A stretch of DNA of 64,000 bases. It comes from Eubacteriales bacterium. GTDB lineage: Bacteria > Bacillota > Clostridia > Oscillospirales > CAG-272. The number at the start of each line of letters is the position of its first letter. Within the stretch, counting starts at the first letter, position 1. The notes beneath the pieces were generated by a model. It worked only from the letters and a program-made list of their open reading frames with translations. It was not told the origin of the DNA and did no database searches. A program made the translations under genes and the position numbers. Of this stretch, positions 28,032 to 32,955 are shown in pieces. The stretch covers positions 226,099 to 290,098 of the forward strand of contig JAZKYL010000113.1 in NCBI GenBank assembly GCA_045612105.1, read 5' to 3'.

Positions 28032-28260
28032 TTAGCCCAGGCTTACAATGCGCTTTACGTCAAGTGCCAGGGCCAAGGACGTTCGCCTTGCGGTTGCAAA
28101 AACGAGCGGCGATTACAGCCCTCAAGGGCAAGCGAGGCTGTTTTCGGCAATGTTTGACATGGGCGAGAACGGCACGCGGGGGCTTATGAAGCTGATTGGC
28201 GAGGCACGAGGTGTTGATCTCGGAAATTTAGCCCAGGCTTACAATGCTCTTTACCAAGTG
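28032..28260 (+). repeat. Imperfect direct repeat at left edge of phage-like fragment (28032-28066 / 28228-28260)
   Basis: ttagcccaggcttacaatgc (20 bp exact) + g/t + ctttac + (gt) + caagtg, copies 196 bp apart. Confidence 0.85.
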
Positions 28261-31200
28261 GGAGCGCGAGGAGAGCATATTTTGAAGGCGAAAAATCCTT
28301 ATATTTCGATGCTTACGCCCGAGCAGGTTGGTTTGGCGTATACTTACGGTCAGATGGACGGGCTACTGGAGAGGGGGAAAAATAAAAATTCGTCTGAGGT
28401 AGTAGAAGAAGCGAAGCCCGAATTTTTGGATAGCGAGAAGGTCGAGAAAGCGCAAGCGGAGGTTGACGCGGCAAAGAGAACTGACGGCAAAAAGAAAAAA
28501 GGCACCGTTATTTACGACGGTGACAGAAGCAAGCTTTCTGATATGCAGAAAAAATCTCTTGACGTATTGGATAAGGTTGCCGAGGCTCTTGGCGTTACGT
28601 TCCGCATTTACGAGTCTGAGAGGGTAAATGGAAAATTCGTTTACGAGAAGCCCGACGGTGTAAAGACGAGCGCTAACGGTTGGTATGATACCAAGACCGG
28701 TGAGATCTGGCTTGATATTAATGCCGGACTTAACGGAGAAGGTACGCTGATCTTTACCGCGGCGCATGAGCTGACGCACTTTATAAAGCAATGGTCGCCT
28801 GCAAAATTCAAGATCTTTGCAGACTTCCTGATTGAGCAGTACGGAGAGCGTGGAATTTCGATAGACGAGTTGGTTCAGAGACGGATCGACAAGAAAAAGA
28901 AAAACGGTGAAGATATAGACCCGGATGTAGCTTACGAGGAAGTAATCGCCGATTCTTGCGAAACCTTCCTTCGTGACAGCAATGCCGCTGAGAAGATAGC
29001 AGAGCTTCATCAGAAGGATGCAAGTCTTGCACAGAAGATAAAGCGATTCCTCAGTGATATGCTCAAGAGACTGCGCGAGCTGATGAACGGAATGGATCCC
29101 GATTCGCTTGAGGGAAAGATGGTTGCTGAGATGACGGGAAGCCTGGAACAGTTGCACAAGCTTTGGACCGACGCGCTCGCCGATGCTGGGGAGGCGTATT
29201 CGGGGGCGGAAGGTGTAGTAAACTCTGAAGGCGGTGTTAAGGAACAGGCGAGAAACGCTAAAAACACAAACGCACAATCAAATAGAACCTTTTCATACAA
29301 TGAGCTTGTGTCAAAGGGGGATCTTTATGGCGTAGTTGTTGATAAAAATCAGCAATTACAAATGAATGGTGGTGTAGTAGATGCGAACTGGCTTGTAAAT
29401 GAGGTGAAAAAGGGTTGCCAAATTAAAAATACCAAAGGAGGACCGGTATATTACGCAGAAGCACCTGATATTGGTAGAAATGTTGAAATTATCAGAGACG
29501 GAATAACTCACGGATTTAACAGACCAAATGACAAAAGAGCAGGTAAATCCACTCCTAATGCCATTATAAATGCTAAAGCATCATTAAATATCATTGAGTT
29601 ACTTCGTCATTCTATAGAAGTCAACAGATCTCAACGAGGTGCCAATAAAGATGTGCCTTATACTCATGTATTGATGGGAGTTATGGAAATCGAGAATGCT
29701 GCAGGGCAAGCAGAATATTATGCGGTTCGTAGCATGGTTCAAGAGAGAACAAATCTCAATCCTCTATTGGTTGAAGTTAACATATTGGGCAAGTTATCAT
29801 CCGTAAATGCAAAAAAAATAGGTTCGCCCGCTGCTCAGGCGGGTAAAAAAACCACAGCCCCTGCAGGTGGCATAACCTATTTTACCTATAGTATAGCAGA
29901 TTTTCTTCAAGATGTCAAGGGGGAATTTGACGATACTTTTTCAAATGATGTTTATGCACATTTTAATATGCAACGCCATGCTAATGATTTTTCGGCTAAT
30001 TTGATGTATTCCGACCGTGATCCTGATGCGCTCACAAACCGTGAGATCTTAGCTAATCTTCTTGAGAGCGAAGATATGTCACCTTCGGAGAAGGGATTCT
30101 TGACGAAGTACAAGAACAAGATCTCTCAGATCGAGGCTAATGAGGCGGAGATCGCCTCCATGGAGACCGAGCTGAAGGAGCTTCGGAAGGCAGGAAAGGG
30201 AGATTCTTCGAGGGCTATCACGCTTGAGGGGAAGATCGAGAACCGCCGCAAGGAGATCGCACGGGATGAGAATATGATCCTCAATCTTGAGTCTACCAAG
30301 CCTATTAAGGAGCTGTTGAAGCGTGAGAAGGATGCCGCTTACGCTGAGGGTATGCTTGCCGGGCAGATGGGGCAGGGAAGACGGGATGCCGCCAAGCTGC
30401 GCCGAGCCGAGGAGAAGCTTGCGGAACAGAAGCGCAAGGACGGTGAGACTCTTGCCGAGTACAGAAAGCGAGTTGTCGAGAGAGAGGCTGAGATCAAGCA
30501 GAAGAACCGTGAGAAGCTGGCAGAGCAGAGAGAGAAGGCACGAGAGAATCTTGATGCGCAGGCTAAGAGGTATCAGGCATCGAGAAAGGCTGCGACCGAG
30601 GGCAGACATAAGACTGCTATGCGCCACAAGATTGCAGACGTTGTCTCTGAGCTTGACAGACTTCTGCGCAAGGGAACTAAGGAGCGCAACGTTAAGATCG
30701 GGCTTCAGGATGCGGTTGCCTCTGCGCTTGAGCTTTTCGATATGAATTCGGAAAAGGTAGAAAGATACAACAAGGCTATTGCCGATCTGGATGCCCGTAT
30801 AGCTGCCGCCACCGATCCCGTAGAGATCGAGGCTCTTACTGCCCTTCGTGAGAAGAAGGTGAGAAACAGCGAGAGGCTTGCGGACAAGCTGCAGGTAATG
30901 AAGAAGGCTTACGAGGATATTCACAACGGTCGTGACGGTGAGAATTATCCTTCGTATTACAAGGCAGAGTGCGAGGCTATTGAGAACCGTATTGCCGAGG
31001 TCATGGAGAAGGTGGGAGACACGCCCATCGGGGATATGTCCCTCGAACAGCTTGAGGCGGTCTATAATATGTACCGCATGGTATTGACCACGGTGCAGAA
31101 TGCCAACAAGATATTCAAGGAGGGCAAGCTGGCTGATCTTACCGATGATGCTGCTGCTATGACCGCGGAGCTTCAGAGGATCAAGAAGCTTGCAGAGGAG

Positions 31201-32955
31201 AGGCTGAAGGCGGGGGATGACATTCGCAGCTTTGTATGGAACGAGCTGACACCTTATTACGCGTTCAACCGAATAGGCTGTGAGACGCTCATGAGCTACT
31301 ACCACGAGCTGATCCGCGGCCAGGACATTTATGCGCGAGATATTGAGGAAGCGCAGCAGTTTGCTGAGCAGACTCGAGAGAAGCACGGATACAACAAGTG
31401 GAAGCTTGATAAGGTACACAGCTTCAAGGACAAGGACGGAAGAGATTTCCGCTTGACGTTGCGGCACATGATGTCGATCTACGCTTACTCCAAGCGAGAG
31501 CAGGCATTTGACCACATGGAGAAGGGAGGCTTCTTCTTCAACAACAAGGAGACCTTCAGGAAGAAAGGTGGAGTGCTTAAGTTCATAGCCTCCAACGAGT
31601 CGGGATACAAGGTGGATGCTCGTATATTCGCTCAGATCAAGGGAGCATTGACCGCCGAGCAGATCGCTTACGTTGACGAGATGCAGGCTTACCTCACCCA
31701 GATGGGAGAGAAGGGCAACGAGGTCACGAGAGTGATGTGGGGAATTGATATCTTCAAGGAGGCTGTATATTTCCCGCTGAAATCGAAGGAGGATTTCATA
31801 TACCAGGCTAACACTCCTGCGGAGACGTCGTCTCTTAAAAACGACGGCATGACCAAGGAGACAAAGCCTCACGCCAGCAATCCCATCGTGCTTGAGTCCT
31901 TCGACGAGGTCTGGGCGAACCACGTGGAGAAGATGAGCAAGTATCACGGGTTTGTTATTCCGATCGATAACTTGAATAAGTTGGTCAACTATGGAACGTG
32001 GATGAGTGGGGAGAGTCAAACGGAACGGGTATTTTCTTCTAATAATGAAATAAGAACTGAGATTGGCGAAGAGGATAGGACTGCCGGCAAGATAGCTGCT
32101 GATTTTATCGATGACGTTTCAAAAATGCAAGATAAAGTCAAGCGCTCCAAACGAAAGAAAAAAATCGGACTTCCTTCCTCTGCACATATCGAGAAAATTG
32201 AAGCCCTAATAAAAACTATAAACGAAGATTTTTCTGCTGATGGATACGAAGTTTGGATTGACGGAACAGCAGTAGATCATCTTATGAGAAGGCATGGAGA
32301 AAATGGTGTTGCCGATCACTCTATGGCTTCAAGAGAAAGCAGAGAGCTTATACCGTGGGTGGTAAACAATCCGGACTCGGGCGAGTTAATTCGCAATACA
32401 GACGGAACATTAGATTTATCCAATAGGTATTTTAATGCAGATGGATCGAAAGCACCGCAAATACGAATGGAAAAGCAAATAGACGGTGATACGGTATACG
32501 TTTCCGAATGTGTGCCTGATAGTATTAATAAAAGAATTTATATTACCAGTGCATACATAAAAAAAGGTAGTACCGATCAACTGTTGAACATAGCTCCTAC
32601 AAGTGGAACTCCGCAACCTACGTCCGAAACGTCTTTTGATGGCAGTACTACCAATAGTAGTATATCACATCCTGGCGAAAATGTCAATAGGAATTTTTCG
32701 ACAAATTCAGAAATGGGCTCTCATTCGATCTCCACCATGCTCGAGGCGAGGTTTGGTCCGGGTGTCAACGAGTATCTCAACACCTTTATAAAAGACCTGA
32801 ACGGCGCAAAAGCGCAGAATGGCGGTGTTATGGGCGGAGTGTTCAACCTCCTCTCCAAGTTCAAAAAGACCTCTGTGGCGGCATCGCTTTCGGTCGTTGT
32901 TCAGCAGCCTACGGCGATCATCCGCGCGCTCAGCGAGATTGACGCGAGGTATTAA
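28048..32955 (+). CDS. Fragment of a phage/mobile-element large polyvalent protein (zincin-like HExxH domain, coiled coil, two nuclease-like variable domains); probably truncated at both ends
   Basis: NGWYD...IWLDINAG...AHELTH...EEVIAD metallopeptidase-like motif; module boundary motifs VKEQAR and MYSDRD; DHLMRRHG...VVNNPD...ITSAYIKK RNase-like domain; no RBS at ATG 28048; ends abruptly at ...SEIDARY. Confidence 0.75.
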   Translation: MRFTSSARAKDVRLAVAKTSGDYSPQGQARLFSAMFDMGENGTRGLMKLIGEARGVDLGNLAQAYNALYQVGARGEHILKAKNPYISMLTPEQVGLAYTYGQMDGLLERGKNKNSSEVVEEAKPEFLDSEKVEKAQAEVDAAKRTDGKKKKGTVIYDGDRSKLSDMQKKSLDVLDKVAEALGVTFRIYESERVNGKFVYEKPDGVKTSANGWYDTKTGEIWLDINAGLNGEGTLIFTAAHELTHFIKQWSPAKFKIFADFLIEQYGERGISIDELVQRRIDKKKKNGEDIDPDVAYEEVIADSCETFLRDSNAAEKIAELHQKDASLAQKIKRFLSDMLKRLRELMNGMDPDSLEGKMVAEMTGSLEQLHKLWTDALADAGEAYSGAEGVVNSEGGVKEQARNAKNTNAQSNRTFSYNELVSKGDLYGVVVDKNQQLQMNGGVVDANWLVNEVKKGCQIKNTKGGPVYYAEAPDIGRNVEIIRDGITHGFNRPNDKRAGKSTPNAIINAKASLNIIELLRHSIEVNRSQRGANKDVPYTHVLMGVMEIENAAGQAEYYAVRSMVQERTNLNPLLVEVNILGKLSSVNAKKIGSPAAQAGKKTTAPAGGITYFTYSIADFLQDVKGEFDDTFSNDVYAHFNMQRHANDFSANLMYSDRDPDALTNREILANLLESEDMSPSEKGFLTKYKNKISQIEANEAEIASMETELKELRKAGKGDSSRAITLEGKIENRRKEIARDENMILNLESTKPIKELLKREKDAAYAEGMLAGQMGQGRRDAAKLRRAEEKLAEQKRKDGETLAEYRKRVVEREAEIKQKNREKLAEQREKARENLDAQAKRYQASRKAATEGRHKTAMRHKIADVVSELDRLLRKGTKERNVKIGLQDAVASALELFDMNSEKVERYNKAIADLDARIAAATDPVEIEALTALREKKVRNSERLADKLQVMKKAYEDIHNGRDGENYPSYYKAECEAIENRIAEVMEKVGDTPIGDMSLEQLEAVYNMYRMVLTTVQNANKIFKEGKLADLTDDAAAMTAELQRIKKLAEERLKAGDDIRSFVWNELTPYYAFNRIGCETLMSYYHELIRGQDIYARDIEEAQQFAEQTREKHGYNKWKLDKVHSFKDKDGRDFRLTLRHMMSIYAYSKREQAFDHMEKGGFFFNNKETFRKKGGVLKFIASNESGYKVDARIFAQIKGALTAEQIAYVDEMQAYLTQMGEKGNEVTRVMWGIDIFKEAVYFPLKSKEDFIYQANTPAETSSLKNDGMTKETKPHASNPIVLESFDEVWANHVEKMSKYHGFVIPIDNLNKLVNYGTWMSGESQTERVFSSNNEIRTEIGEEDRTAGKIAADFIDDVSKMQDKVKRSKRKKKIGLPSSAHIEKIEALIKTINEDFSADGYEVWIDGTAVDHLMRRHGENGVADHSMASRESRELIPWVVNNPDSGELIRNTDGTLDLSNRYFNADGSKAPQIRMEKQIDGDTVYVSECVPDSINKRIYITSAYIKKGSTDQLLNIAPTSGTPQPTSETSFDGSTTNSSISHPGENVNRNFSTNSEMGSHSISTMLEARFGPGVNEYLNTFIKDLNGAKAQNGGVMGGVFNLLSKFKKTSVAASLSVVVQQPTAIIRALSEIDARY
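29811..29883 (-). ncRNA. Predicted ~73-nt antisense small RNA 1 embedded after first variable domain
   Basis: Starts at 7th nt after -10 box; 10-bp terminal stem AAAAUAGGUU/AACCUAUUUU, two internal hairpins, U8 end; prediction only. Confidence 0.6.
29890..29918 (-). promoter_or_regulatory. Intragenic antisense sigma-A promoter 1
   Basis: TTGACA-tcttgaagaaaatctgc(17)-TATACT with extended -10 TG. Confidence 0.75.
32559..32652 (-). ncRNA. Predicted ~94-nt antisense small RNA 2 embedded after RNase-like domain
   Basis: Starts at 7th nt after -10 box; 10-bp terminal stem GGUAGUACUG/CGGUACUACC, AUCAA/UUGAU, two internal arms, U7 end; prediction only. Confidence 0.65.
32659..32687 (-). promoter_or_regulatory. 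Intragenic antisense sigma-A promoter 2
   Basis: TTGACA-ttttcgccaggatgtga(17)-TATACT with extended -10 TG. Confidence 0.75.

Follow-up and report, generated by a model that had tools for sequence, protein, structure and literature searches.

Antisense promoters and predicted small RNA genes in the linkers of a polyvalent-type protein from Clostridia

Why do two linkers of one giant bacterial protein carry the same short peptide pattern, S-I-x6-V-[K/N]? The protein, P0001, is the product of a polyvalent-type open reading frame (ORF) of 1635 aa, taken from the ORF list and its translation, at 28048..32955 on the plus strand of a 64,000-nucleotide (nt) stretch of DNA from a Eubacteriales bacterium (contig JAZKYL010000113.1 of assembly GCA_045612105.1); "the window" below means this whole stretch. 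Polyvalent proteins, the class to which P0001 belongs, carry PBECR domains, as set out by Iyer et al. (2017; PMC5512222). One of the two linkers follows a PBECR3 domain and the other an unnamed domain, which we call domain 1. A first-pass annotation of the window had read the shared pattern as a promoter seen backwards and had offered it as a searchable signature of small RNA genes hidden inside protein genes.

The comparisons described here support the first of these ideas: S-I-x6-V-[K/N] appears to be no protein motif but what results when the sense frame is translated through a near-consensus sigma-A promoter of Firmicute type that lies on the other strand. We also think it likely that each promoter starts a complete small RNA gene, lying antisense in the linker after an effector domain, and that domain, RNA, and promoter pass down as a single cassette. 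The predicted RNA would be 75-95 nt long, with its 5' and 3' ends paired in a closing helix, and would end in a U-tract, translated in the protein as KK or NK; it would be made constitutively and act as a working partner of the RNase-like domain upstream.

Two promoters on the strand opposite the protein

Both peptides stand in the frame of P0001, YSIADFLQDVK at 29887-29919 and SSISHPGENVN at 32656-32688, and their S-I and V-[KN] codons are, as the first-pass annotation had it, the reverse complements of TATACT and TTGACA, with both minus-strand sites reading TTGACA-17-TATACT. Promoter 1 (29890..29918, minus strand) consists of TTGACA (29918-29913), a 17-nt spacer, and TATACT (29895-29890) preceded by TGc, and its sense reading is S-I-A-D-F-L-Q-D-V-K. 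Promoter 2 (32659..32687, minus strand) consists of TTGACA (32687-32682), a 17-nt spacer, and TATACT (32664-32659) preceded by TGTGa, and its sense reading is S-I-S-H-P-G-E-N-V-N. Both sites carry TG at -15/-14, within TGTG in promoter 2 and TCTG in promoter 1; TRTG, the -16 element, is a feature of Gram-positive promoters. The design that we propose is a -35 box TTGACA, a 17-nt spacer, a TG or TRTG -16 element, and a -10 box TAnnnT; AGT-ATA-nCA on the sense strand is the reverse complement of TGn-TATACT and nnT-GTC-AAn that of TTGACA. Each site matches the sigma-70/sigma-A consensus at 11/12 positions plus TG, and the two are the top promoter-like sites of the 6-kb region.

Could such sites arise by chance in AT-rich linker DNA? 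The units have 36-43% GC within an ORF of about 50% GC, and AT-rich DNA readily yields promoter-like hexamers. In the window, TTGACA-N14-TGNTATACT occurs with zero mismatch only at promoters 1 and 2; with at most two mismatches there are 8 sites where 0.44 are expected, a count reached by 0/100 shuffles. Chance is refuted by these two exact 15-base matches, set against an expectation of 0.44 even at two mismatches, by the recurrence of the sites in 11/11 independent loci and 75/122 distant representatives, and by the codon choice at the sites, both described below. A recombination site was considered as well and judged insufficient, the sequences holding only about 15 conserved bases with a variable spacer between.

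In the whole 2.96-Mb assembly, 186 of the 219 TTGACA-N14-TGNTANANT sites are intergenic, and the only antisense ones deep in long ORFs are promoters 1 and 2 and a third that lies outside the window in another giant ORF of the same genome (G000; 2782 aa, contig C54:3405-11750, minus strand). All three share one codon register. The C54 site, TTGACA-17-TATACT with TG, is read as SIAQIIEFVN at aa 1340, and the RNA predicted after it is closed by a stem (GACACGG...CCGUGUC) and has a U-rich tail; at aa 1111 of the same ORF lies SILQPSKKIN, a similar but weaker site.

Codon choice at the promoter sites

If the pattern is a promoter, the bases that a promoter needs should be fixed in related loci even where the encoded residues differ. 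We gathered relatives from a sample of 399 Clostridia genomes by the PBECR3 domain alone (Pfam PF18812), with no use of the motif. PF18812 is present in 48/399 of these genomes, and the counts cover 30 loci, a further 23 weaker matches being left out; in 11 of the 30, including the window's, the domain is embedded in a large ORF (700 aa or more; 703-3268 aa in these loci), and the other 19 are small ORFs that stand alone. In 11/11 embedded loci an antisense promoter stands directly after the domain, in frame 0, with TG, a 17-nt spacer, and a -35 box TTGAC[A/G] (eight found at the strict threshold and three at two mismatches). The codons beneath the motif are fixed to match, each in 11/11 loci: A-N-T at codon 1 (residues S, T, N, I), N-T-A at codon 2 (I, V, L), N-C-A at codon 3 (S, P, T), GTC at codon 9 (V), and AAN at codon 10 (K, N). 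GTC makes up 11% of the valine codons elsewhere in these ORFs. TGTG is found in 10/11 embedded loci (codon 4 being CAN, or ATC in L072) and TG in 11/11. Codon choice at these positions is thus far from random among synonyms, as the annotation had foreseen, and is fixed while the residues vary. Bases fixed where the promoter needs them and free elsewhere support selection on the DNA, and the case shows cleanly how selection on nucleotides can pass for a peptide motif.

These counts bear on the reading that the motif is genuine at the peptide level, a site at which polyvalent proteins would be processed or a peptide by which they would dock, and that its likeness to a promoter is incidental. The motif, as x-[IV]-[APST]-x5-V-[KN], is kept in 32/34 protein homologues of domain 1, with flanking residues conserved too, and polyvalent proteins are thought to be cut up by their own peptidase domains (PMC5512222). 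We nevertheless consider this reading highly improbable: residues 1-3 vary just as the non-critical promoter bases allow while GTC and xCA hold in 11/11 loci, the TG-bearing antisense sites in large ORFs fall in one register in 14/14 cases, and the same promoter precedes free-standing copies that have no ORF around them (below). Read in the sense direction, long ORFs hold no TG-bearing site, a count that leaves out a non-TG sense site in L067 and the antisense unit of L070 re-read in an overlapping minus-strand frame. Among the homologues of domain 1, position 1 varies between S, N, K, and R, each of which an A-N-N codon can encode.

Where does the inherited unit begin and end? The PBECR3 cassette (32116..32559, plus strand) has a basic lead-in followed by a BECR-fold RNase-like domain that ends in SAYI and then KK; the PF18812 match covers aa 1386-1510 of P0001 at 37.2 bits, above the curated cut-off of 30. 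Homology across 19 proteins begins at 32116, runs through the linker, and stops right after V-[K/N], which is the -35 box, an end point which argues that the cassette takes in the domain, the RNA gene, and the promoter together. The antisense promoter is found in 0/19 stand-alone PBECR3 ORFs, and the RNA is likewise absent from them; the neighbours of 13 of these 19 are mixed, two with helix-turn-helix (HTH) genes, and no conserved protein partner is evident among them. A blastn search of both RNA regions against the 399 genomes returned pieces of 19-54 nt, mostly promoter, and no full-length relative; the cassette protein as a single query found one backbone homologue (L044) and one weak IMG/VR match; the cassette alignment (A1) had no match in the JGI metagenomes or IMG/VR; and tblastn against phage and plasmid collections gave none. 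In L044 (2686-3035) two antisense units lie 321 nt apart, so that one cassette there is barely 107 codons long; the last unit ends in a GENVNRN junction like the window's.

Domain 1 (29329..29817, plus strand; ending NAKK) has no Pfam or PHROG match. Its AlphaFold model has a predicted local distance difference test (pLDDT) score of 90.3, and a fold search gave 0 Foldseek matches at E <= 0.001, the best VIA Z being 4.9; about 19 of the 50 matches listed are RelE/ParE/BrnT/CdiA-CT toxin-type entries, all below the tool's trust level, so the model gives at most a hint of likeness to toxins of the RelE/ParE/BrnT/CdiA type. Assignment of domain 1 to LPD3 was tried and rejected, there being no profile match at E up to 1, and LPD3 in the homologues P0032 and P0041 covers a different region. 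The unit behind domain 1 can be compared with that of L077, a homologue with 52% identity, which has TTGACA-17-TATATT with TG in the same register, then a stem-closed RNA followed by U7; the shape is that of RNA-1 (the RNA predicted behind domain 1) and the sequence is unrelated.

How far can the peptide alone serve as a search key? A domain-only search among 1.84 billion representatives gave 791 at E <= 0.001; of the best 150 of these, 122 have at least 70 residues after the domain. S-I-x6-V-[KN] falls within 75 residues after the domain in 39/122, compared with 13/2006 windows of 75 residues elsewhere in the same proteins, and the wider pattern [SNTIRKM][IVL][SPTA]x5V[KN] in 75/122, compared with 39/2006 background windows. 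The median offset from the domain end is 33 residues (range 25-58). Most of the misses show near-variants (L-S-T, K-I-N, K-S-N), peptides of the kind that promoters with a 16-nt spacer or a weaker -35 box would give. Within the 122 polyvalent-type proteins (212,443 residues) the original pattern is found 67 times against 6.2 in shuffled sequence, the form with Q/H at position 4 60 times against 1.0, and the form with a K/N pair 105 times against 6.6. In the organism's own proteome (878,595 residues) the corresponding figures are 34 against 25-26, 13 against 5, and 36 against 27, and a DNA promoter lies beneath only 5/34 of the original-pattern matches. The proposed signature therefore holds up inside polyvalent proteins and fails across a whole proteome, where it is at chance level and the DNA must be checked alongside the peptide; its S-I form is real but narrow, and the wider pattern is needed to reach 75/122. 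A practical rule for locating such units is the in-frame series A-N-T N-T-A N-C-A ... GTC AAN, 25-58 residues past the end of a domain whose last residues are rich in K and N.

Shape, conservation, and free-standing copies of the predicted RNAs

What would the promoters transcribe? RNA-1 (29811..29883, minus strand) is a predicted stem-closed antisense RNA of about 73 nt whose 5' end is placed from the position of the -10 box; it contains a terminator-like hairpin (29841..29825) followed by a T-run, giving a U8 tail (29818->29811). RNA-2 (32557..32658, minus strand) is a predicted three-way-junction RNA of about 90 nt with a terminal helix P1, a hairpin P2, and a variable hairpin P3; P1 is followed by U7 (32565->32559), and P2 is a conserved hairpin with the plus-strand sequence ACGTCCGAAACGT (32620-32632). 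The folds have energies of -34.2 kcal/mol (z -4.6) for RNA-1 and -30.0 kcal/mol (z -2.8) for RNA-2, each matched by 0/200 shuffles. The lysine pairs that end the two domains were rightly taken for the A-tracts that give the U-tails: NAKK (AAT GCA AAA AAA) lies over A8 at 29811-29818 and YIKK over A7 at 32559-32565.

The 11 PBECR3-linked RNAs follow one design, with a long P1 and a U-tract, a short near-invariant P2 (CGUYUYGGRCG), and a variable P3. The T-run is present in 10/11 loci, L063 being without it. There (L063 1833-2007, from the GC-rich genome G062) two P2-type hairpins occur and no U-run follows the terminal helix, and this unit may have a different mode of termination. A covariance model, R1, built from ten PBECR3-linked RNAs, recovered the left-out eleventh (L063) and found an additional unit in L070, where only the decayed remains of a PBECR3 domain adjoin it, and it scores RNA-2 at 45.1 bits (E 6.7e-6). 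In the alignment, which is fitted to R1 itself, 84.8% of cells are paired compared with 40-47% for slid partners, changes occur on both sides in 14/18 pairs, and the observed values are reached by 0/500 shuffles. The terminal inverted repeats that had been expected at such genes are also there: the 5'/3' helix beats 95% of shuffles in 15/17 units of all kinds, the exceptions being L064 at 1945 and L061 at 3301, with two further units left out of the test for want of a T-run as anchor.

The strongest single argument for conservation at the level of RNA is the reading of P2 by the protein. From its consensus, CG[TC]CC[AG]A[AG][AG]CG, five loci translate T-S/P-E/K-T/A and five others Y-V/A-Q/R-D/N-V/G, the regular expression having missed one of the 11. 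With P2 conserved in two reading frames, a peptide constraint cannot explain its conservation. Rfam has 0 matches in the window at the gathering threshold, and permissive E-values bring only sub-threshold snoRNA/sRNA noise away from both units. A comparison of P2 with an anticodon loop was dropped, as covarying pairs lengthen the stem and leave a 3-nt loop.

Units are also found beyond PBECR3 and domain 1. A third domain type, ending ...IRDKGKxQxEYxIxFxENK, carries one in L067 (592-620) and in L003 (1507-1535). The RNAs of these units contain P2-like hairpins (GAUGUUUUGGAUGU, CUCCGUUUGGAG), which suggests that the RNAs of different cassettes may be one superfamily. The further unit in L070 (560-760, genome G058) is the second of R1 type there, has an intact promoter (NISQNNSIVN), and lies in stop-rich DNA, beside a PBECR3 domain of which only the final ~15 residues are left; from this arrangement the RNA gene appears to have outlived its domain.

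If the RNA is a gene in its own right, it might be found where there is no protein to read through it. Searches with R1 of 151 and then 22 genomes found 12 places outside the window's genome, in 7/151 and 5/22 genomes respectively. Five of them lie within long open frames (572-1031 aa) and three within short ones (61-153 aa), and four have stops in all sense frames. The free-standing copies, three in G011 and one in G408, each have a good promoter, and they adjoin rubredoxin, thioesterase/malic-enzyme, and ArsC/MGMT-type genes. Stop-bearing copies with promoters indicate that the RNA is a gene in its own right and that dual coding is one of its two states. Two of the G011 copies stand in tandem, about 60 nt apart, after the rubredoxin gene (L082 1501-1741, contig C20), and another lies between thioesterase and malic-enzyme genes (L086 1501-1593, contig C17). 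In a single case (L084; G148, contig C11) a unit in a 61-aa frame adjoins a polyphosphate kinase gene about 1 kb from the Cas gene Csn2 of a type II-A CRISPR system. Neither G011 nor G148 has a PF18812 match in the domain search of the 399 genomes; the window's own PBECR3 domain, compared with five genomes that have free-standing or divergent units, likewise found 0, a weak negative because the same search also missed the domain of G411, a genome with an embedded unit.

Copies both inside ORFs and in intergenic DNA, up to three per genome (G011), with terminal inverted repeats and a length of about 130 nt including the promoter, could also describe a selfish palindromic insert: a mobile element, like a Rickettsia palindromic element or a miniature inverted-repeat transposable element (MITE), that tolerates in-frame insertion and has an incidental promoter and an RNA without a role. 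We think this quite improbable. The RNA-2 region is single-copy in its own 2.96-Mb assembly, and blastn in 399 genomes gave only short promoter-like pieces and no near-identical copies; the arms differ wholly between copies while their pairing is kept; the promoter bases are under strong purifying selection; and the position relative to the PBECR3 end is fixed in 11/11 loci, which fits co-descent and not repeated insertion. Rickettsia palindromic elements are hairpin-forming, multi-copy selfish repeats without a promoter that are translated in frame within host proteins. The units described here share with them the translation of a hairpin-forming nucleic acid in frame, but are single-copy, diverged, and tied to domains, and have a conserved promoter.

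What the RNAs may do

An antisense RNA inside a gene might serve to silence that gene in cis, the RNA pairing with its own mRNA (through RNase III or transcriptional interference) and keeping a toxic gene quiet in a lysogen, with its fold serving as a terminator. The unit is fully complementary to the sense mRNA by construction, its position just 3' of the domain resembles that of the phage lambda OOP RNA at the end of cII, and the P2 loop fits YUNR in most loci (UUCG, UUUG, CUUG, CUCG); YUNR loops are typical of fast-pairing antisense RNAs. We regard silencing in cis as the sole role as rather unlikely. P2 is near-invariant while P1 and P3 drift, and a self-complementary pair needs no sequence conservation; at least four copies stand free, with good promoters but without any sense ORF to silence; and one unit per domain cassette exceeds what silencing one gene would need.

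A role in trans, as an antidote or decoy that would bind the domain by the logic of a type III toxin-antitoxin system, is the one that we favour, though we give it a little less than an even chance. Three observations speak for it: the cassettes link the RNA to particular domains, the sequence of P2 is kept as a self-complementary antisense pair would not require, and orphan copies persist in genomes without a detected PBECR3 domain. Another role in trans, or none, takes up the rest. A wider form of the antidote idea, which we consider unlikely, is that polyvalent effectors, injected by phages or conjugative elements, carry an RNA antidote gene behind each RNase-like domain and that chromosomal orphans confer immunity against incoming elements. 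Orphan RNAs would then be the RNA counterpart of the orphan immunity proteins of polymorphic toxin systems.

Several points weigh against these interpretations. The 19 stand-alone PBECR3 ORFs do without the RNA and without an obvious conserved protein partner, which tells against an antidote, and P2-like hairpins behind a different type of domain weaken any strict domain specificity. Conservation of cassette 1 extends past the -35 box (FDDTFSxDVY), where selection on the protein, or an element upstream, may contribute, and the DNA comparison of cassette 1 is with one homologue only (L077, among the 399 genomes). The pairing counts come from an alignment that was fitted to R1. A promoter, a terminator, an RNA structure with covariation, nucleotide-level conservation, and free-standing copies are established as features of the sequence; promoter, start site, and termination as working signals rest on consensus and folding.

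Do known systems offer a precedent? The OOP RNA of phage lambda, a countertranscript of about 77 nt in the pO-oop-tO unit, has its own constitutive promoter and terminator and runs antisense to a phage coding region near the 3' end of the latter. It is like the present units in being a short antisense RNA with its own promoter and terminator in a phage-type coding region. However, OOP overlaps the end of cII and the intergenic space, whereas promoter, RNA, and terminator here lie wholly inside a continuous ORF, and the present units, unlike OOP, recur behind several domains, travel as a cassette, and have free-standing relatives; between OOP and the present RNAs there is no sequence relation and no Rfam match. 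In type III toxin-antitoxin systems the antitoxin RNA neutralises the toxin protein and is encoded as tandem repeats upstream on the same strand, which the toxin processes. The PBECR3 unit differs in having one unrepeated RNA, which lies within the ORF, past the domain and antisense to it, although no tandem-repeat search was made. It resembles these systems (ToxIN, CptIN, TenpIN, AvcID; see the review PMC4147584, and PMC10511110) in setting an RNase-type domain beside a small structured RNA. Type I antisense RNAs (PMC6563280) are similar in being cis-encoded, with a strong promoter, and in their overlap with an mRNA whose product is toxic; the toxins of type I systems are small hydrophobic peptides, whereas here the partner is a domain of a 1635-aa effector and the RNA lies over a linker rather than over a start region or 3' untranslated region (UTR).

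The polyvalent system itself (PMC5512222) offers the same class of protein as P0001, with PBECR3 and a family given to mosaic domain shuffling. The words "promoter", "noncoding", "small RNA", and "linker" have 0 occurrences each in that text, and embedded RNA genes are no part of the system as described there. The literature searched holds no description of RNA genes inside polyvalent or MuF proteins. What is new here is the comparison of codons, the finding that P2 is read in two frames, the copies that stand free of any ORF, and figures for how sensitive and how specific the peptide signature is. If each cassette does hold a promoter and a structured RNA, then "conserved linkers" would be RNA genes rather than protein features, and the unit of domain shuffling would be a protein-RNA pair in giant polyvalent proteins so far annotated as strings of domains only. 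An uncatalogued RNA family would then be common in gut Clostridia, both hidden in ORFs and free-standing, and the way in which a cell tolerates the production of a multi-toxin effector would become directly testable.

The gene of P0001 stands alone amid housekeeping genes, with polC, rhamnosidase, GDSL esterase, and leucine-rich repeat (LRR) protein genes upstream and dUTPase and cobW-type genes downstream; a Pfam scan of 21 neighbouring ORFs found 0 phage structural or conjugation genes, and ARAGORN found 0 tRNA or tmRNA genes in the window. Residues 785-1342 of P0001 match phrog_22978, an uncharacterised giant phage protein family (E 1.5e-121), and a zincin-like HExxH (AAHELTHF), not called by Pfam, was spotted by eye in its N-terminal part.

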